From: Balamuthia mandrillaris
Lineage: Eukaryota
Assembly: GCA_031835245.2 (NCBI GenBank)
Contig: JAVKOQ020000004.1
Span: forward strand, 496,001-538,335
Direction: 5' to 3'
DNA length: 42,335 nucleotides
Shown: piece by piece, positions 12,277 to 40,139 of the stretch
Numbering within the stretch: the stretch's first letter is position 1
Layout of the letters: each line of letters begins with the position of its first letter
Notes under the pieces: model-generated
The model's input: the letters and a program-made list of their open reading frames with translations, nothing else
Database searches by the model: none
What the model was told of the DNA's origin: nothing
Translations under genes and position numbers: made by a program

Positions 12277-13016
12277 CTAACTGGATATAATCATAATATC
12301 ATCATCATCATCATCATCATCATTCTCCTTTGTTTCTTCCTCTTCATCCAAGATGGATATGACTGTAGTGGTAGTAGTAGAAGTAGGAGATGATGGGAGG
12401 GAAGCATGGTTGTCATCCGGTGTGTCAAAGTCCTCATCATGGGCCACCAAGTATTTGTCTTTTAAAGCATCAAGATTGTTGAAGAATTCTGTGAGGAGAT
12501 TGCGCCATTTGTCATAGCAATCATTGTTGGTTCGGCGTTGGGTAGGCAAGTGTTTGGCAATCTCCAACCAAGACCATCCATCACGCAAGTGCCAAGTGAC
12601 AAGTCTACGGATTTCTGGTGTCTGCCAAGCAATCCGTTGTCGATGACCATTCTTCTGATATTTGAGTCGATTGGATAACATTTGTTGTCGCTGAAGTGCT
12701 CTGTGAACTCGTTGTTGTGGTGGTGTTTTTTCTTTTGAGTTATGATTCCTTTCATCATCATCATCATCGTTTTTTTTCAGAACATCATTAGGAGAAGTAG
12801 GTAAGAATGGCTGCTCTTGATGACGAGAGGTGAGGAATGCTTTGTGAATGGGTGATCCGTTGACCAACTTGGGAAGTACAGGAGCTACAAACTCATCCAC
12901 CAGCTCATTCAAGCCACTGAAAAAACCTTGTAGAATGCCAGAGATATGTTGACAGCAAAGCTGATGATGAATATTGGGCCAACGAAGAGGAGATTTGTTT
13001 TTGGCCTCATAAGTTG
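12277..13016 (-). pseudogene. 5'-truncated intronless ORF with a Myb/SANT (telobox-like) domain
   Basis: RQRIAWQTPEIRRLVTWHLRDGWSWLEIAKHLPTQRRTNNDCYDKWRNLL has the three-Trp Myb pattern. The frame stays open upstream (TYEAKNKSPLRWPNIHHQLCCQHISGILQGFFSG) to the LTR junction with no ATG. Confidence 0.6.
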
Positions 13017-13205
13017 TGTAATTGAGTGACCCCTCATCTCATTACCCCACATAAGGAAGGAACGAACACGAACACGATAACACGAAACCACCATAAGGAC
13101 CACGATACCAATCCTTTTTATACCAACACTATCTTTATGTTTATCTCTACAGACACAGACTACAATACATACTCTTTTCCCATATACCTATTTACTCTGC
13201 TAACA
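13017..13205 (+). repeat. 5' LTR (189 bp)
   Basis: Identical to 17254-17443 except ACAC vs AAAA (2 substitutions) and one T missing at the 5' terminus. Ends in CTAACA. Confidence 0.95.
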
Positions 13206-13218
13206 GGTTATGGGCCCA
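13206..13218 (+). promoter_or_regulatory. Primer-binding site GGTTATGGGCCCA (half-tRNAiMet primer type)
   Basis: Immediately after the 5' LTR. Same motif class as Drosophila copia and yeast Ty5, which prime from the initiator-tRNA anticodon stem-loop region. Confidence 0.85.
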
Positions 13219-13269
13219 CAGTCAAACTAAAACTGCTACACTCACAATCTCCTTCAAACACACTGCACG

Positions 13270-13990
13270 ATGGACAAGTTGAAAATCAAACCGTTTGACG
13301 GACATGGATTCCAGGATTGGAAATGCCAGATGAGAACGCTCTTGAAGAGCAAGGGCGTATGGGGCTATGTTGACGGAACGATAACCATAGGAGCCAGCAG
13401 CAGCCAAAAGCAGGAAGACATCGAGTTTAATCCAGCGAATGACGCCATAGCCAGCGGTTTGATCTGTAGCTGTCTCACCCTACCACTCTTGAGACAGGTG
13501 ATGAACCTTGAAAGTGTGAAAGAACAGTGGGATAGGCTTTGCGAGAAATATGACAAGGCTGACACCACTAGAAGGACCGAGCTCCGCACCAAGCTTGCTA
13601 CAAAAATGAGGGACAATCAGGACCTCAACAAACACCTCGATAAGTTCAACAGCCTGATCGGCGAGGCAGACCTAATCTTCAGCAACGCTTCGATACCTGA
13701 GGACGAAAAGATCCACTACCTCCTAAACAGCTTACCAGAAAGCCTGGAGCACATCTCTTCTTCACTAACACTATCCTTGAAGGACAGCAGCACCTACAAG
13801 GAGATATTGGACAAACTTAGACTCGAAGCTGCCCGAAAGAAAAGCAAGTTTGATGGCAAAGGCGAATCAATCATGTATGGACGCCATAGACAACGTGGAA
13901 ACAGAAAGGACCATGGTTGTTGAGAGAAGAAAGATAAAGATATTGAGTGCTACAAGTGCCATGGATTTGGACACATAGCGAAGAAGCAGT
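13270..13990 (+). pseudogene. gag: copia gag, with premature stop and broken zinc knuckle
   Basis: FDGHGFQDWKCQMRTLLKSKGVWGYVDG...LLNSLPES. Stop TGA 13921-13923, then CYKCHGFGHIAKK lacking the last Cys, with a frameshift near 13985. Confidence 0.88.
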
Positions 13991-14023
13991 CAGAACGGTA
14001 GTAAGAAAAAGAAAGGAGAGCGA

Positions 14024-17000
14024 ATGATGAACGTGTCGCTCAAAGGAGGATCACCAACCGGAGACATAATCTTGGACTCCGGAGCATCCTGCCACATGAC
14101 GGGTAACAAAGGCCTGCTAACGGACTGTAAGCCAACAAAACCAACCAAGGTCTACTTTGCAAACGGCGAAAAGATAACCGCCACGGAAGCTGGTAACCTA
14201 CGTTATATAACAGAGACAAAGTACGGACACGAAACGTGTGTTTTCCAAGATGTACTCTACGTCGACGGATTCGACAAAACGCTAATATCCACGACGACCC
14301 TGGACCGAAGAGGAATAACCATTTCCTCATCCGGCGGAGTCACCAGACTCAAACAGGACGGAATGGTCATCGGTATCGGAATATTGGAGGAAGACGGACT
14401 ATACCACCTCCAAGGCAAACCAGAGCCGCGAAAAGAGCACGCTAATACCGCAGTGGACGAATGGCACAAACGTTTGGGCCACATCAGCATTGAAAAGCTG
14501 AAGGAACTACCGAAGATCACGAACGGAATTGATATACCCAGCGGCGCAACCCTCGCACCGTGTACTGCCTGCCTCAAGGGCAAGCAATCCCGAAACCCCG
14601 TTAGTACAGAACCAGCCACTCGAGCCACAGAGAAGCTCGAATTAGTGCACACGGACATATGCGGACCAATGCAGACCTCCATCGGAGGGTCCAGATACTT
14701 CATTACCTTCACGGACGACCTGACCAGACGAACCTGGGTCTACGGACTGGCCACGAAGGACGGTGCACTGGAACGATTCCAAGAATTCGAAGCTTTGGCC
14801 ACCAACCAAAGCGGCAAAAGGATCAAGGCACTACGAAGCGACAACGGCGGCGAATACATTAGCAAAAACTTCAGAAACCACCTACACAAGAACGGCATAC
14901 AAACCCAAACGTCTGCACCCCATACACCGGAGCAGAACGGAGTCGCTGAAAGAAAGAACAGGACGCTTATGGAGAAAGCACGATGTATGCTTCAACACGC
15001 TGACCTGGACGAGAAATATTGGGGGCCAGCCATCAACATGGCGAACTACATCACGAACCGCACCGGCACCAGCGCAGTCAACGGAATGACGCCAGAAGAA
15101 GCTTGGACTGGAAAGAAACCGTCTCTCCGACACATCCAAATCTTTGGAAGCAGACCGTGGACGCTCATACCCAGTAACGACCGAAAGAAACTAGATGCCA
15201 AAGCGAAGGAGCTCATCTACCTTGGACCCACATACCCTCTACAACCCAAAGACAAAGAGAATTACTCTTTCACGCAACGTAAAGTTCATCCAACCTGAAC
15301 GGAGCACAATGGACGACGAGAAAGAAAAACTCACCTCCATCAAAAACAAGCCTGAGCAACCGAAGAGGATGCAAACTTCAGACCTAAGCGACAAAGAGGA
15401 CTCTGACTCAAGCGAAGATGAAGAGGAGGAAGGCGAAGACAGCGAAACTAAGGCTGATGAGAACGCAGGCGAAACCAAAGGCAAGCAACCTATCAACAGC
15501 AGCGACGGAAACGGCAAAGCCATCATCGATAAGAAGACAACCAACCCTGCATTTTCATTCCTCAAAAAGCCACGAGCAGACGGGAAACGAGCTATCACGA
15601 TAACCTCGCGACTCATCGAAGAGGATCCCAAGAAGAAGAGTGCCAACCTGGTCACCTACGCGCTGATCGCAGCAATCATCGGGGAACCAAAAACCTACGA
15701 AGAAGCAATCAACGGACCAGATCGAGAGAAGTGGCTTAAGGCGATGTCAGAAGAGTTCGAAGCTCTGATGAAGAACAAAACTTGGCGACTCGTTAAACGA
15801 CCCGGAAGAGAGAGAACCATCGTCAAGAACAAATGGACATTCAGAATTAAGCGGAATGCCCACGGCGAGATCGAACGATACAAGGCCCGACTCGTTGCCA
15901 AAGGCTTCACTCAAGTGAAAGGAGTCGACTACTTCGAAGTCTATGCACCAGTCGTTCGAATGACATCGATTAGAATCATCATAGCCTTTGCGACATTCTA
16001 CGACCTAGAACTCCACCAGTTGGATATTGTCACAGCATTCCTCAACGCTACCATGAAAGAAGTCATCTACATGGAGCAACCTGTAGGATTCGTCGACCCC
16101 GAGCATCCCGACGACGTCTGCCTCTTAGAAAAGGGACTATACGGCACGAAGCAAGGAGCAAGAGAGTGGAACGGAGAATTTGATAGCACTCTCGTTGACC
16201 TTGGCTTCGAAAAAGCATCAGCCGACTGCTGCATCTACTTCAAATGGGAGAACAACAACATCATCATCATCGGACTGTACGTTGACGACCTACTGATCGC
16301 GGGAACAACCGAGAACATCAACAAGTTCAAGAACGACTTGAAGTCACACTACGACGTGAAGGACTTGGGACCAGCCCAATTCATCCTCGGAATCCAGATC
16401 AAACGCGACCGACAGAACCGACGCACAACACTACTCCAACCTACCTACATCAGCAATATGCTCGAGAAGTACAACATGCACAAAAGCAGGCCAATCGACA
16501 CCCCAACGCAAGTGGGAGTAAAGCTAACGAAGTATAGCAATTCGAGGAAGCTCGACCCCAAGGTTCCTTACCGAAACGCAATCGGAAGCTTAATGTACGC
16601 AGCCACCGGAACCAGACCCGACATAGCATTCGCCGTTAACGAGCTCGCTAGATTCACAGCTGACCCCAAAGTGGAACACTGGAAAGCCCTAAAAAGAATC
16701 TTTCGCTACCTCAACGGAACAAGAAACCACGGTATCACCTTCGACACCAACGACGCTAACGCTTCGAAACTTATTGGATACGCCGACGCCGACTACGCCA
16801 ACAACATCGACTCAAGAAGATCGACCACGGGATATGTCTTCAAATTCTGCGGAGGACCAATATCATGGCAATCGAGAAAACAGAAGACCGTCGCGCTATC
16901 TACAACCGAAGCCGAATATATGAGTATCACCGAAGCAACCAAAGAAGCTATCTGGTTAAGAAGACTGCTAGACGATATCGGAGAAACCCAAGAGGGACCT

Positions 17001-17267
17001 ACCATCATCTACGAGGACAACATTGGATGTATCGAACTGTCCAAGAACCCAGGAAACCACTCCAGAACAAAGCACATCGACATTCGACACCACAAGATCA
17101 GGGAAGAAACCAAGAAGGGTACCATCAAGCTGGAGTACATGGCCAGCGACGAGATGCCCGCCGATGTTCTGACCAAACCCCTACCGCGAGACAAACACGT
17201 CAAACTAATCACGGACATCGGAATGAGACAAGAGAATCGGGATCAAGTGGGAGTGTTAATTGAGTGA
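14024..17267 (+). pseudogene. pol: copia pol (protease, integrase, RT, RNase H) with a frameshift near 15230
   Basis: ILDSGASCHM (PR); WHKRLGH..CTAC; VHTDICGP/RSDNGGEY/PEQNGVAER (IN); YKARLVAKGF, QLDIVTAFL, LYVDDLL (RT); YADAD/STTEAEY/YEDN/ADVLTK (RNase H). The frame switches at LIYLGPT|TLYNPK. The stop lies inside the 3' LTR. Confidence 0.93.
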
Positions 17268-17443
17268 CCCCTCATCTCATTACCCCACATAAGGAAGGAA
17301 CGAACACGAACACGATAACACGAAACCACCATAAGGACCACGATACCAATCCTTTTTATACCAACACTATCTTTATGTTTATCTCTACAGAAAAAGACTA
17401 CAATACATACTCTTTTCCCATATACCTATTTACTCTGCTAACA
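17254..17443 (+). repeat. 3' LTR (190 bp)
   Basis: TGTTA...TAACA terminal inverted repeat, preceded by purine-rich AAGTGGGAG. Confidence 0.95.
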
Positions 17444-17459
17444 TGACCCATATTGGAGG

Positions 17460-17768
17460 GGCGACAACGGGGGCAACGGAAGACCTTCTTCCCTCCCAGT
17501 TTCTGGTGGATACGTCCGCATCTTCCACAGGTCTTGGAGGTGTAGTGCTCGTCCACGATCACGATGCCCCCGTTGTCGCCTGGAAGCAGACAGAGACATC
17601 CATGCTGCCAGGAACGTCCTTTTGTGTTTCCTGGCACATCAGGACATCATTGTGGCGAAAGGTAGGGAGCTGTACGGACAGAGTCCGGCAGCATTGGGTC
17701 CTACACCCGTGAATGCATCCACCCATTGTGGTGCATTTGTGCAAGATTTGCAAAATGTGCAAGTTTAA
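17460..17768. pseudogene. Fanzor/TnpB (IS607-like, Fanzor2-type) nuclease C-terminal remnant with internal inversion
   Basis: Minus strand 17460-17564 reads VIVDEHYTSKTCGRCGRIHQKLGGKKVFRCPRCR. Plus strand 17565-17768 reads CPRCRLEADRDIHAARNVLLCFLAH...QV*. Joined, these give the E.YTS-CxxC...CxxC-DRDxxAARN signature. Confidence 0.88.
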
Positions 17769-17794
17769 TGTAGGCGTGGAGGGAATCTTTCATA
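17669..17794 (+). ncRNA. Putative omegaRNA scaffold (~17669-17774) plus candidate guide (~17775-17794)
   Basis: Stem-loops at 17669-17692, 17696-17708, 17711-17738 and 17740-17752. Loop CCTAC (17700-17704) is complementary to GTAGG (17770-17774). Overlaps the 3' end of the nuclease ORF, as expected for TnpB/Fanzor omegaRNAs. Confidence 0.5.
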
Positions 17795-17882
17795 TCGAAG
17801 CTGACCCATATTGGAGGGGTTCTATCTAGACACGAAATTTATTAGAACTTTGTGGTCAGGTTTTTTTTTTGACCTCCCTCAC

Positions 17883-20127
17883 TCACTGGCTGCTGCCGCC
17901 GGTATGGGAGTCCAACCACTGCGCAACTGCATCACGATCGCGAGCAAGCCAGGCGGCGTTGCTCCTGATAGCCTCCAAGCTCTGCTTCACAGTCCTAGCG
18001 GCAGGCTCGTAAGGGTGCTCGGCAAAGAAATGCTCCACCTCTTCCGCTTTCTCCTCCGAGGTGAAGCCCTTGGTGGAGTAGCTGATCACGCGGGTGAGCA
18101 AGGTACCGCCATCGCCCAACAGCTCCATGTACTTGCTCCAGTTGTCCTGTACGAAGCGCCAGGTGATCTCGCGACCCTCCACGCTGTCGGCGGTGGAGAC
18201 GATGACGTACATAACGTCCTGCGCTCTGACCTCGTTAGTGTCCAGCGACATTCGCAACGTCCGCTGTAGTCGATCTATGTGTTACAGCGAAGATAAAGTT
18301 CAAAAGTTTTACATAAAATCGACATAGAAGGAGGAAGGCAGAAACATACCTTCATCGTGAGTGTATCCAAGAGCTCTCAACGCGCGGATCTTTTCTTCAT
18401 GGAGAGTGGCCTCTTTGTAGATTTTATAGACGCTGTCCCATTCAACAGCTCCTCCGTTGGACACCACCTGTTTGTTTCAAAAACGTTGTCAGCGTTTTCA
18501 TTATTTGCAAAGGCTCAACTGGGCAAAGGATTGCATACCGCTTTGTAGACGACACCTCGTAAGTCAGCAGGAATGGCTTTGCTATCGTTTAGGAACTTTT
18601 GGAAGCGGGTTTTGGCCTCGTTGATGGTTGCCTCATCGCCAGCATCCACCAACCTGCTCAACAGAACAGTTCTCAGGAGGGTTTGCAGATCTTCCTCTCC
18701 TTGCTTCTTATCCCTGTTGGGACAGCAAAAAAAAAAAAAAGATAAGTCAATAAAGGGGAGAGAGAGACAATGAGAAGGAAATAAGCGTACCAGCCAAGGT
18801 TGGAAGCCGCGGGGCCAATCAAGGAGCGAATGAAGGCGTTGAGCTGAGGAGCGGCAGGTTCAGCCTCCCAGACTGATGCCATTTGAGCCAAGTTAATTGA
18901 CAAATCCGACCAGATCGTGTAGTCCGTCTCATTGCCATACGCACTTGCCAATGTCAACACCTTTGAAAACAAGTCACATGAGTCATGTTGAAATTAAAAT
19001 TACATAGAAGGGAAAGGAAGAGGGACGAAGAGACCTGCGAGGTGGGGAGGTGACCAGCTTTAGCCAATGCAAAGGCGTCATTCTGGATACCTAGTCTGTC
19101 GATAGTGCCAAGACTGTGGCCATCAAGGGCCGCCAACAGTTTCTGCACCATCGCTGGCGAATACTTGACGCGGAAAAAGCCGGTGGAGTTCGCGTTGGCC
19201 TTAACCCAAGCAGCACCCTTTGCAGAGGTGACTTCGATCTCTTGTTTCGTGTCCTTGATGTCCACGCGCTCCGCCTCTTGAGATGTTGAACTATAGTGTT
19301 TTTATCAAAGAGAAGAATAGGAGAGTAATCATTTAGTTTTGTCTGCTAAGGAACAAAGAGACAGGAGAAAAAAAGAAAGGTGAACCTGATAAAACCGACA
19401 TTCATCCACCAAACGGTAGAGTTGCCCTCAACGGTCTCCCCAGAGGAGAGGAAGCGCTGCTGCTCAGTTGCATAGACGCCCGCTTTTTCAGTCTCCTCTA
19501 TAGAGAGCACAGGGTAACCGACAGCCTTGGTCCAGTTATCCATAAACTCTTTGACGGGCAAGCCAGAGCTTTCCGCAAGAGCCGCCCAAAGGTCCTTTTA
19601 AGTGGTAGGCAATTGATAACAGGTTCAGAATCGAAGGTCATAAAGAGATTTGAAGTGCAACGTACCTCAGTAACGGCATTGGCGTACTTGTGGCGCCCAA
19701 GATAGATTTGAAGACCCTTTTGGAAGCGTTCTTCTCCCAAGTAATTGGCCACCATGCGGATGACAGAAGCTCCTTTGCTGTAGCTGATGGCATCAAAGAT
19801 TTCGTTGACCTGCGCAGAGCTGGATACCTCCACTTCAATGGGATGAGAGTTCTTGAGGCCTACACATGGTTGAGTTGATATCAGTAAAAGAAACTAAAGA
19901 AAAAGGTAGAGACACACAAACCATCAAGTTCCAAGGCACGGGCAATGTAGTCAGTGACAAATTGAGTCCATATGTTCCACTCAGGGAACAATTGAGCAAC
20001 AGCTTGGTTGCCCATGAATGTAGCAAAGCCTTCATTCAGCCAAAGTTCCTTCCACCATTCCATTGTTACAAGGTTGCCGAACCACTGATGAGCCACTATA
20101 AGAGGAAAAAAGTGTCACTTTCAATTA

Positions 20128-35393: not shown

Positions 35394-38300
35394 TTAAACA
35401 AAACGAACCACCAAACATGCGATGTCGTCGCCGCTCCTCTCGTAGAAAGCAGTGTCACGAACCCTTACAGCCGCAGAGAGAGCATCCGGCTCGCTGAGAG
35501 CCACTCCGATGGCCTCCTTATCCGAGAGCACATCCCAAACTCCATCGCAGCCCATCACCAAGTACATCGGCGGGACCTCCACCGTCGAAACGGCATCGGA
35601 GGAGATGGCACCGGTATCCGTCACGTCGCTGCTGCTCGCCGTCAAGGAGCGGAGGGCGTGATGTGTGGGACGACTCGTGCGTCGAGAGCGTAACACAGGC
35701 GAAGGGAAGCGAGAGGAATTGGAAAAGTAGGCGGGAGAGGTGGAAGGAGAGCCGATAGGGGAGGTTGACGTGTCGGTTGTGACTTCCTGTGGCTCGCTGT
35801 CAGCCTCCAAGGCTTGAAGGTAGGGCTGAGCGTCTTTAGTGCGCATGGCCACGGTAGGGGTAGCGCACTCCGACTCGTTGCCGTGGTGGAGGGCAGTATA
35901 CCTCATACGCTTTATCTGCTTCTTTAGCCGTTTCCTCTTTTCCTTTTCCTGGTGTTTGTTGCCGCGAATGGGGAGCTCCGTGATGGTGATGGTGGGCTCA
36001 TCAGAGATGTAAGGCCGCCAGCTAAAATCGCCCATGGCTCTGGAGACGGCGAGACCGCCGTAGCCTCCACTGGCGAAAGTCTGGCAGATCCTGTACTGTC
36101 TGCTGACAATCTGATCGGCTCGCACCTGGCCACCAACGCCACGAATGCGGCGAGCCTCCTCATCATCCTCCGGCCGGTGGTCCGTGCTTAGCCGTACCAC
36201 ATCGTAGCCGTTAAAGAAGACGGCGCGGGAGTCTCCCACGTTAGCCACGTAAAGAGTATTACCGACGACCAGGGCCACCACCGCCGTCGTTCCGCACTCC
36301 ACCTTCATGTCGTGCTTCTGAAAGTGAGCCAGCATGCGAGCGTTAACCTCTGCGAAGGTTCTGCGCAGCGCCATTTCCGGCTCCGGATGAAGGTCCATCT
36401 GCTCGGCCAGAACGCGGTGGAACTGGGCGCTGCAAAAGGCGGAGGCGTGCTTGCCCCCGTGACCGTCAAACACTGCAAAGTAATCCTCGTCGTCGCGCCC
36501 GCGGAAGCAGCCGCGAACCACCAACACGTCTTCGTTCTTGCGGGCCATACCAATCATCTTGGCGCAGCCGTACTGGAACCGGGAGCTGAGATAACCCTCC
36601 TCGTGTTGGCCCAGGAAGGCAGGGAATGAGTACTCTTCCTCAGGAACGGCTGGGATAAACTCCTGTTCCAGTACGATGGGCTGAGGAGGCTTGTCCTTTC
36701 CCTTTTCTTTGTCTTTGTCATTGGATTTGCTGTCTCGGAGCATTTGTCCATGGCCCTTTTTCTTCTTCTTGTGGGACTTTTCCTTGTCCTCCTTCTTCCG
36801 TTCCTTCTCTTCTTTCTTGCGTTCCTTTTCCTCCTCTTTTTTCTTTTCCTTCTCCTCTTTCTTTTTTTCCTTCTCCTCCTTTTTCTTTTCCTTGGTCATA
36901 GCAGCTGATTCCTTCTTCCCTGTCACGAAGCTCTTCATCTTTGCTCCTCCTTTGCTGATCTTGGTTTTGGTTTTCGTGGAGCCCATGCCAGGAGGGGACT
37001 TAATCTCAGGGGGAGGCGGCGGAGGAGGGACAGAGGAATGTTGTGGCAGGGGTGGTGTGCCAAACGAAGTTTGTTGGTGGGCAGTTGTAGGAGTAACTTG
37101 CCGGGAACGTAGCGGTGAGGAAGCAGGGGCGGAAGAAGAAGATGGTTGTGAGTTTGGGTGATTGGGGCGTTGTAGAGAGGGAGAAGGGGAAGGGGAAGAT
37201 CGTTGCGATGAAGGAAGTGGAGTTAACTGTTGGTGAGCCGTTGCTCGATGCTGAGAAGGAGAAGGGTTGTTGAAGGAGACGTTGTGGCGTCGGGGAGAGG
37301 GAGGGGCGACAAGAGGAACGACTATATTGCCGTTTGACTTTTTGCGTATGCCAAACTTTGTGTCCGTTTTCTCTACTTCGCTGCTGGGCTCTGAGGTGCT
37401 GCTCTCCCCGTTCTCAGAATCTGAGGAGGAACGGTGCTCGCCACTCCAGCTTGAGGCACTGCCCTCCTCCTCAGTGTCTCCACCGCTGCCTCCTTCCTCC
37501 TCTCCAGATGGTAGAGGGTCTTCGGTGGTGGCATCTTCCCCAGAAGACAGATCCAACGTGAGCTCTTCATCGTCGTTCTGTGCTGCCTTCACAGTCTTCT
37601 CCAGGGCTTTGAGCTCCTGTTTCTTGATCTTCGGCAAGGTGACGTCAGGAGAAACATCTATCTCGAGGAGCTGCCGCACCAACAAGGGCAAAGTGGAGGG
37701 CAAGGAAGCCAGCGATGAGCCACGCAGGTAGAGCCGCTGCAGGTTGGACAGTGCGGGAAGGGTCTCAGGGAGGCGCAGCTGCACCCTATTGTTGGCCAGA
37801 GACACCCAAGTGAGGGCCTGTAGCTGGCTAATCTTTTTGGGGAGAGAGGGCAGCGCGTTGCCTGAGAGGTGCAGCTCCTGCAGAGCGGAAAGGCTGAGCA
37901 AGATACGCGGAAAATGTTCGAAACGGTTGTAGCTGAGGATGAGTTGTTTGGTGTTCATGCTCTTGGCGGCCATCTTGGTGTCAGCGAACATGGGCAAGCG
38001 CCCAATGCCTTCTGGCAGTTCAGTCAAAAGATTGTGGTAGAGATTTAGGGAGACAAGGGCAGTCATGTTCTCGATGGAGTCAGGCAGCTTTTGCAGCATG
38101 TTGGCCCCAAGGTGCAAGTCATAGACTCGAGTCATGCCGCTCATCACGCTATCCAAGGTTTCCGAATAGCGCAGCCGGTTATGTGCTACGTGCAGCACTT
38201 GAAGGGCGGGCAATTGTCCCACTTCCGGCGGCAGCTCTTCCAGCAGGTTGTGAGACACGTCCAGAGTTTCCAAGCAAACCAAACGGGTGATGTCGGCGGG

Positions 38301-40139
38301 CAGCGCCTTGATTGAGTTGTTGCGCAGGACCAAGGTCTTCAATGACCTAAGCGTTCTGTACACAAAGTCCGGCACGTACTTGAGCTTGTTGTTGTTGAGG
38401 AACAAGCGGGTGACTCCTCGCCACTTAATCAACTCCTGTCGCTCTGCTCTCAACAAAAGCTTCCGCCGTCTCTCGCCAGAGGTGTGTATAGCTTCCCAAT
38501 TTGCTTGCTTGGAAGCTCCACCTCTAGGTGACGTTATCCTGTCCTCCTTCTCAGCCCACCCACTCGACCTCGCTCGCCTGTGCTTCTTTCTCCGGTTGGA
38601 TGATGCTTGCTCTGCTGCCTCGGCCTTTTCCAGTGAGAGCAACATGGCGTCTGCACTGGAGCTCGTTTGGTGTGGCTTGATCATGTCTTCTGGTTGACTA
38701 TCCATCGAGCTGCTCCGTGTTAGCGGCTGTGGTATGGGCATTGGCTTAGATCTCGAGCTCTCAGCCTGTCTTTCTCCACCGGCATTGCTAGGACTCCCTC
38801 CTTCTCTGTCCGCCACAGCGTTGTCCTCCTCTGCTGTTGGAGACTCCTCCTCCGCCTCTATTTCTGCCTCTCCATCAAAGGTTAGACGTTTAATGGCTGG
38901 AGAGTCGTCTTCAATACTGCCTGAAATGCTGTCGCCTCCTTTTCTGCGAAGAGGAAATGACAGAGATGGTGCGGTAGTGTCAACATCAACATCACCTGGC
39001 CGCTTCCCCAGAGACTTGACTCTGCGAGGATGTTTCTTGTCACTTTCGTTGCGCATAATGTGCTTCAACTTGTTATCGCTGAGATCGATAACCAGAAGCT
39101 CGCTCATCATCCCCAGCTCTATCGGGACCTTCTTTAGCCGATTCTTGAACACTACTAACCGCTGCAGCAGCCGTAGTTGCCCAAGCTCTGGTGGTAGCAC
39201 TTGCAGTTCGTTTTCCACCAAGATCAACTCCGTCAACGCCCGTAAATTGCTTGTTTGTTGGCGTTAATAACCTGCGAGAAAGAGAAGAGAACGCGCGGAG
39301 AAGAGGGAAACCGGAGCAGAGAAAAGAGAAAAAGAGCGGAAAGCAGGTGCGAAAAGGCGTACCCTATTTCGGGAGGCAGAAATTGAAGGCGGTTGTGTCG
39401 AAGGTTAAGGAAGCTGAGGTTTTCTAGCAAGCCAATCTGAGGCGGAAGCAACGTAAGATAATTGCCACGCAAGTTAAGAACTCTGATCTGACCAGCAGCC
39501 TTCTTACAAAACGAGGCAGGCACGCACGTCAGCTCATTCCAGCCAAGGTCCAAGTCCTCCAGGCTTTTGAGATTGGCCAACTTTTGCAAGGCCGGAAGAA
39601 AGAGAAGAAGCAAAGAAACATAACAAAGAGAAAGAGAAATGCACAAGAGCGTGACATAAAATAAGAGAAGAGTTCCAGCACAAGCAGCAGCAATGGAGAA
39701 AAGAAGGAAAAAACGAGAGGAAAAGAATAGAAACAGCAGAGAAAAGCCAAGGAAAGAGAAAACAAACAGAAAAAGAAAGACGTACGACTCTTGGAAAACT
39801 GGAAAACCTGTTAAAACTGAGGTCCAGCACTTTGAGGTTGACCAAGTCCGCAAAGTCAGGCGGCAGCGCGCTCAGCCGATTGACCTGGAGGCCCAGCTTG
39901 GTGAGTGTGGAGAAGGAGTAGCAGAAGCCCTGCGGCAAGGCCAGAATGTCGTTAAAGTCGCAGGAGAGGACTGTCATCCGGCCGCGCAGCTGGATGAGGT
40001 CGGCCGGCAGCGTGGCGATGCCCAGGCGAGCCAGGTCCAGGTTGCCCGTTTTCAGGCAGTTGCGGATCTTCTTTTCCAGCTCGAAGCTGGAGTAGGAGAT
40101 GAAGGTTCTGCCCTGGGGCTTGCCTTCGATGTTACCCAT
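35394..40139 (-). CDS. LRR + PP2C phosphatase (PHLPP-like architecture) with possible N-myristoylation; spliced at the 5' end
   Basis: MGNIEGK start. Many LxxLxLxxNxLxxLP repeats. PP2C motifs NED, FAVFDGHGG, GTTA, ANVGDSRAV, DHRP, LAVSRAMGD, GCDGVWD, GDDI. Confidence 0.92.

Follow-up and report, generated by a model that had tools for sequence, protein, structure and literature searches.

The window, by which we mean the whole 42,335-nt stretch of Balamuthia mandrillaris DNA analyzed here, carries a remnant of a Fanzor2 transposon in flanking DNA that is eukaryotic and rich in introns. The remnant is bordered upstream by the 3′ LTR of a Ty1/copia retrotransposon of the same orientation, which adjoins it directly, and downstream by the final part of a host aminopeptidase gene, which is on the opposite strand (Table 1). 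Positions 17565 to 17777 contain the 3′ end of a TnpB/Fanzor2 gene, an omegaRNA-type scaffold, and the right end of the transposon. No transposase or additional nuclease sequence was found elsewhere in the window. The copia element is full length with near-identical LTRs, and its 5′ LTR abuts a Myb-domain ORF (12277 to 13038, minus strand) that is possibly cut short. A long host ORF (35394 to 39263, minus strand) encodes leucine-rich repeats and a PP2C-like phosphatase stretch, recognized by eye from the translation.

Table 1. Coordinates of the Fanzor2 remnant and of the features around it
Feature	Position	Strand	Remarks
Ty1/copia retrotransposon	13015-17443	+	LTRs 13015-13205 and 17254-17443; 3′ LTR abuts Fanzor2 remnant
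18-bp repeat, left copy (of downstream flank)	17444-17461	+	exact repeat
Inverted Fanzor2 ORF piece (zinc-finger region)	17460-17560	-	PF07282, E = 7e-9
Fanzor2 ORF 3′ end	17565-17768	+	last zinc-finger pair, DRD..ARN RuvC-III motif, tail overlapping RNA scaffold; stop 17766-17768
Hairpin H1 (predicted)	17669-17692	+	pair probability 0.89-1.0
Hairpin H2 (predicted), likely nexus	17696-17708	+	loop CCTAC(A) = 5′ pseudoknot strand
Hairpin H3 (predicted)	17711-17738	+	pair probability 0.84-1.0
Direct repeats TGTGCAAG, two copies	17738-17763 (starts 17738, 17756)	+	candidate transposase-binding repeats
Fourth hairpin, folding-preferred	17744-17766	+	pair probability 0.71-1.0; replaces 17740-17752
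3′ pseudoknot strand (T)GTAGG	17769-17774	+	
Terminal CG and one semi-fixed base	17775-17777	+	transposon right end at 17776
Predicted guide	17778-17797	+	local host flank; length taken over from other systems
18-bp repeat, right copy	17802-17819	+	exact repeat
Host aminopeptidase (ERAP1_C), last coding stretch	17883-18281	-	AATAAA on same strand at 17843

About 300 bases of the nuclease ORF are kept, the left end is gone, and the last RuvC motif is the only one that survives in the window. The minus strand of 17461 to 17568 encodes the zinc-finger stretch that precedes the plus-strand piece, and the first 19 bases of this inverted piece repeat positions 17562 to 17580 in reverse (18 of 19 identical). 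Both pieces match PF07282 and full-length relatives (63 to 77% and 54 to 79% identity), and since they map to consecutive parts of these relatives, the 5′ piece has been inverted; the un-inverted parent form is present in contigs of samples X1, X4, and X11. The remnant retains a C-terminal [TS][TS]xx-C4 zinc finger followed by an RD motif, the combination used to define Fanzor2/TnpB proteins (PMC3627910) and shared with the IS607-type Fanzor2 elements ApmFz2/ISvMimi (PDB 9B0L), ACa-1/-2 of Acanthamoeba, and ISvNY2A/ISvAR158. A PDB search with the fragment itself gave no match. The best solved-structure match of the relative P0023 is the mimivirus Fanzor2 (9B0L, E = 7e-22); the element may be closer to Fanzor2 than to other TnpB/Cas12 proteins. 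A preliminary description, made from the letters of the window, had read the region as a Fanzor2/TnpB right end with an omegaRNA-type scaffold and a destroyed nuclease gene. Our analysis supports both points, only the inverted piece and the 3′ end of the gene remaining in the window.

All six motifs listed in that description (hairpins H1, H2, and H3, a hairpin H4 at 17740 to 17752, GTAGG at 17770 to 17774, and a guide at 17775 to 17794) lie where it placed them. When pair probabilities were computed over 17660 to 17797, H1, H2, and H3 folded as drawn, but H4 had a pair probability of 0.0 and the hairpin at 17744 to 17766 formed instead. The pair probability of H2 was about 0.5 and rose to 0.94 for three pairs when the pseudoknot strands and the guide were held unpaired. 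With H2, H3, and the fourth hairpin, the predicted RNA has the layout of IS605/IS607 omegaRNAs, in which the first of three stem-loops pairs with the end of the scaffold (10.1101/2023.11.20.567912), and in this it resembles the bacterial IS607 TnpB elements ISXfa1 and CboIStron, whose first stem-loop is the nexus. The z score of folding stability was −2.27 for 17660 to 17810 and −2.97 for 17669 to 17777, and 3 of the 106 sampled 109-nt windows of host sequence scored lower than the latter; the predicted stability thus exceeds chance, though it is not unique. No Rfam family matched at E values up to 10. The best 40 of 63 variant rows include seven variable positions between 17663 and 17725: five fall on unpaired bases, a sixth leaves a G-U pair in place, and the seventh breaks the pair that closes H2. 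In X1 and X2, a diverged sister family has retained GGTCCTAC ahead of an H3 whose sequence is rewritten, as judged by eye from a loose end before 17727. The guide-RNA fold, as predicted, is intact here and conserved in relatives.

Contig loose ends before 17617, 17685, and 17727 represent element variants that share only the last 50 to 160 bases, which suggests internally deleted elements or sister families keeping the nexus loop. The motif TGTGCAAG occurs twice within 40 bases of the element end, a weak likeness to the short direct repeat motif near IS607 ends (PMC6188088), and its two copies may be transposase-binding sites.

The loop of H2 was proposed to form a pseudoknot with GTAGG, and compensatory changes among relatives support this pairing, which can reach 6 bp (17700 to 17705 with 17769 to 17774). 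Of 169 related loci that we collected, 147 allowed anchoring with 300 bases of downstream sequence, leaving 110 distinct ones. The bases directly preceding a CG, a dinucleotide picked after inspection of the loci, matched a hairpin loop over 5 bp in 27 of the 110 distinct loci, against 12.4 ± 2.8 in chimeric controls, of which none of 200 reached 27; the other 83 loci lacked such a helix. Among the 20 closest loci, 11 had the match (3.1 in controls), and an earlier run of the same count gave 21 of 98 versus 8.8. Only CG, GG (31 versus 14.1), and, less so, GC were enriched among the 16 dinucleotides, and the enrichment of GG reflects the same helix in families ending in CGG. In an alignment of the window with eight relatives, which were hand-picked by eye once the helix had been seen, 44 of 45 pseudoknot cells were Watson-Crick pairs, with two to four pair types at four of the five positions. 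The strand pairs were CCTAC/GTAGG, CTACA/TGTAG, CCTGT/ACAGG, CCTGG/CCAGG, and CTTCC/CGAAG, and only 1 of the 120 re-pairings of these five distinct motif pairs does equally well. The covariation check proposed earlier gave 0.250 versus 0.132 on an unedited MAFFT alignment in which two rows are one column off, and none of 500 shuffles was as high. By this computational covariation, the scaffold has the pseudoknot between nexus loop and 3′ end that characterizes omegaRNAs. A rival partner, CGCCT at 17577 to 17581 with the last five bases (the ApmFz2 spacing), was absent at the matching place in all 27 relatives. The scaffold of ApmFz2 likewise ends in a pseudoknot right before the guide, in which G-3 and C-2 take part (PMC11832414), but its nexus loop lies about 190 bases from the end, whereas here the distance is about 70 bases and the scaffold overlaps the ORF end.

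The right end had been placed at about 17774, followed by a GG junction and a guide starting at 17775. Similarity between copies does stop sharply, but at 17776/17777 and not at 17774, so that the actual end lies 2 to 3 bases further right. We compared three studies (X1, X2, and X4) and left out X15 to X21, which had small word shares. Behind 17776, contigs diverge at least 2 times in X1, 1 time in X2, and 6 times in X4 (9 cases in the best 19 of 70 loose-end rows), and behind 17777 at least 4, 4, and 5 times, respectively (13 in the best 19 of 70); none of the best 19 of 70 diverges at 17774. The sequence past these points is unrelated among the diverging contigs, giving the sharp boundary and variable flank expected of an omegaRNA scaffold. 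The window and the eight relatives all end in the pseudoknot, CG, and one further base, which is T, A, C, or G. Since the contigs diverge behind G17776 or T17777 and the relatives end in this way, the GG is part of the pseudoknot strand and the guide is likely to start at 17778. The crossover dinucleotide is then likely G17776-T17777. ISXfa1 has a fixed first flank base, which belongs to its scaffold (10.1101/2023.08.09.552727); by the numbering of ApmFz2 and ISXfa1, T17777 would be position 0 and the guide would begin at 17778. A G-T rather than a G-G crossover predicts a target motif ending in GT. ISXfa1 and CboIStron are alike in counting a semi-fixed first flank base in the scaffold, but they have a GG core and GGG/TGGG target motifs, whereas G-T is the commonest here and relatives show GA, GC, GG, and GT. 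In IS607-type Fanzor2 elements the junction base is G, while here it is T or another base. The ends of L010, L012, L013, L014, L018, L020, L022, and L028 read pseudoknot-CG followed by different bases (T, A, C, and G), suggesting family-specific junctions and target motifs among related elements.

The predicted guide is the flank of this very locus, since the junction between element end and flank is bridged in three other samples, X1, X2, and X4, where the guide sequence likewise follows the element end. In X1, contig depth reaches 429 within the final 50 bases, compared with 70 for the ORF and 3.5 for the flank, and although depth is not copy number, this is a rough sign of many element ends, including ORF-less or diverged ones. 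The heptamer TGGAGGG occurs at the guide start (17777 to 17783) and in both 18-bp repeats (17812 to 17818 and 17454 to 17460), which may be chance or microhomology used in rearrangement.

On the left side, the gene has been cut, partly inverted, and joined via 18 bp of duplicated flank to the copia LTR. The inversion joint carries a tandem duplication of the 6 bases CACGAT (17554 to 17565), which resembles a templated repair insert. While the right junction is bridged in three samples, the two left junctions were not seen in contigs of X1 or X2 (X4 is unreadable there). In X1, un-inverted copies suffice to explain the depth over both (computed and observed values agree at 5.93 and 62.0), and X2 has no contig cover at 17448 to 17509. 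Such holes are weak evidence, given that one also occurs within the host gene in X2 and that depth in X1 is only 2.5 to 10; gaps in coverage being no proof, the order of events remains tentative. We favor an older insertion shared between samples, followed by a later local rearrangement. This event, likely born of repair or replication, would account for the loss of the left end, the transposase, and the greater part of the nuclease, for the inversion of 100 bases, and for the 18 bp of flank duplicated beside the copia LTR.

The same architecture can be read differently. Positions 17462 to 17801 could be a reverse-transcribed Fanzor precursor RNA inserted by a LINE with twin priming, in which case the 18-bp repeats would be the target duplication and 17778 to 17801 a guide from another locus. 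Inversion, truncation, and duplicated flanks mark twin-primed inserts (PMC2837659), and like 5′-inverted L1 retrocopies, the remnant has flanking direct repeats, which are exact, a 5′ truncation, a 5′ inversion with a 19-base overlap, and short shared bases at a joint (a GG shared where repeat and inverted piece meet); in form, the left side looks just like such a copy, and the insert stops 24 bases past the element end, near guide length. In contrast to twin-primed L1 copies, it has no poly(A) tail, and its right junction is found also in samples that seemingly lack the left junctions. Among the rows listed, no donor locus had the same 24 to 25 bases branching at 17801. The left repeat begins exactly at the copia LTR, so that 18 bp may not be its full length. 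We regard this origin as improbable.

Somewhat less probable still is that the left-hand structure is an artifact of assembly or of chimeric reads and that the real locus carries an ordinary, longer element. The unseen left junctions would fit, as would the frameshifted copia ORFs, the lack of a 5-bp target duplication around copia (TAAGT or AGTTG on the left, TGACC on the right), and the mismatches at 17391, 17392, and 17394 between the 3′ LTR of the window and every LTR contig of X1, X2, and X4. An artifact does not easily account for an LTR that ends cleanly on CA, for pieces that are base perfect, or for the 6-base tandem duplication at the inversion joint, which is typical of repair. It would in any case leave the conclusions on right end and scaffold unchanged.

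The family to which the rearranged element belongs was characterized through its relatives. All six upstream ORFs tested in related loci encode MerR/HTH-resolvase proteins, and relatives of the remnant, like IS607-type Fanzor2 elements, carry a serine-recombinase TnpA. The TnpA of L012 has its closest matches among glomeromycete IS607 transposases; a search with it returned fungal and metagenomic IS607 transposases, none of the 91 being named Balamuthia. The IS607 type rests on these relatives, since the window has no transposase and no intact copy was recovered from Balamuthia. Left ends of four relatives gave nothing readable by shared 7-mers, viral contigs contained no exact end patterns and none of the 17 candidates for P0002 in them was confirmed, and profile searches from two-row alignments, covering only the 67-residue piece, returned mostly repeats. 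In L004, a second, short copy of the chlorovirus element end follows closely downstream, and in L044 the Fanzor gene is flanked on either side by IS607 transposase genes in other orientations. As the GG dinucleotide of canonical IS607 elements is absent from the junction, we place the locus among IS607-like Fanzor2 remnants and outside the canonical GG-core IS607 elements. We consider it probable that the locus is the surviving right end of a multicopy Fanzor2 (TnpB-like) transposon, likely of IS607 type, whose last approximately 110 bases are a predicted guide-RNA scaffold closed by a pseudoknot just before the terminal CG at 17776, and which was later rearranged and is most likely a passive remnant.

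A contig of X1 (depth, 61) showed no difference from the window over 17565 to 17755, and one of X11 none over 17565 to 17773. A protein search with the plus-strand piece yielded a single match, to a gene model of Balamuthia mandrillaris (28 residues, 96% identity). Two gene models of this amoeba that fall in one cluster are distinguished by a stretch derived from the element, which shares 96% identity with the remnant. In this pair, the DTW-domain gene model P0004 has the 28-residue element tail piece, and its homolog on another contig, P0224, does not; they are likely a filled and an empty site, or else element sequence has been taken as an exon. These near-identities suggest that the family moved recently. 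It is mainly this youth, and no demonstrated retention for use, that accounts for the intact scaffold. IS607-like elements with Fanzor2, among them ACa-1/-2 of Acanthamoeba, have been published (PMC3627910 and PMC10530073). Our literature search found no publication linking Balamuthia and Fanzor, although supplementary tables of Fanzor surveys may list the organism, and Fanzor, TnpB, and IS607 gave no match in the main text of the Balamuthia genome preprint (10.1101/2025.02.25.640156).

In an intact copy, the transcript would read through the gene end into the flank and be trimmed to the scaffold and about 20 flank bases (a guide from 17778). This guide would lead the nuclease to cut the empty copy of the same site, and repair from the filled copy would restore the element, as inferred from work on IS607/IS605; the cycle of cut and repair was shown for bacterial IS607 (10.1101/2023.11.20.567912). 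Here the remnant differs from intact Fanzor2 elements and, having no intron, from CboIStron, and it has lost its own promoter region. LTRs are able to drive read-through into downstream sequence, and the same-strand copia LTR could supply it; a bacterial promoter scan was uninformative for a eukaryote. This copy is most likely passive, yet it could still yield a loadable guide if there is LTR read-through.

The preliminary description went further and saw the RNA module as a possible stand-alone guide. With a promoter added to this idea, read-through RNA from the copia 3′ LTR would be trimmed, loaded by the Fanzor2 of another copy, and used to cut the empty homologous allele. The scaffold is identical to the deep family contig and the LTR lies directly upstream on the same strand, the Balamuthia genome has been described as diploid-like (10.1101/2025.02.25.640156), and P0004/P0224 suggest a filled and an empty gene. 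Elsewhere, ghost omegaRNA loci of SpuFz1 were described and their RNAs act in trans, in human cells (PMC10432273). No target was found for the guide in the window, in viral contigs, or, among the rows listed, in sample contigs, however, and the search proposed earlier gave no hit beyond chance (4 matches in the window for a 14-mer at 3 mismatches versus 6.5 expected, and no match of the 20-mer in viral contigs). Furthermore, contigs run unbroken over the end-to-flank junction in X1, X2, and X4, with no empty-site branch among the rows listed, the guide is predicted to pair weakly with itself, and no intact nuclease from Balamuthia was recovered. We judge it unlikely that the locus is an expressed guide, rather than a passive remnant.

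Use in trans would be plausible but of a published kind. Like the Spu-1 (Fanzor1) ghost loci of Spizellomyces punctatus, the remnant has an RNA module without a working nuclease gene, and here too the last 50 or so bases are far deeper than the ORF in contigs. The Spu-1 ghosts, in contrast, keep both ends, form a conserved 550-base family, and were shown to work in trans, whereas our remnant has lost its left end, retains ORF debris, and is a Fanzor2 with a pseudoknot whose use in trans is hypothetical; with one end lost and part of the ORF present, it is not a ghost locus in the strict sense. ORF-less, trans-acting ghost omegaRNAs being already published, what is added here is a boundary now corrected and a junction other than GG, from which a different target motif is predicted.

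These results point to a young multicopy Fanzor2 family that lives in a culturable amoeba and has a compact scaffold, for which we define the pseudoknot and the end. Relatives end in pseudoknot-CG-N, where N can be T, A, C, or G, and this rule leads one to expect target motifs that differ from GGG, a point of interest for compact editors. On a speculative reading to which we give little weight, an orphaned Fanzor2 guide RNA has acquired the LTR as its promoter (or the orphan itself arose at another locus and was moved here by reverse transcription), and a recently mobile non-GG family with its own target motif would be fed stand-alone guides in trans, driving gene conversion between the homologous chromosomes of the amoeba. 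Whether eukaryotic Fanzors home could be tested naturally in a diploid-like genome that has both filled and empty sites.
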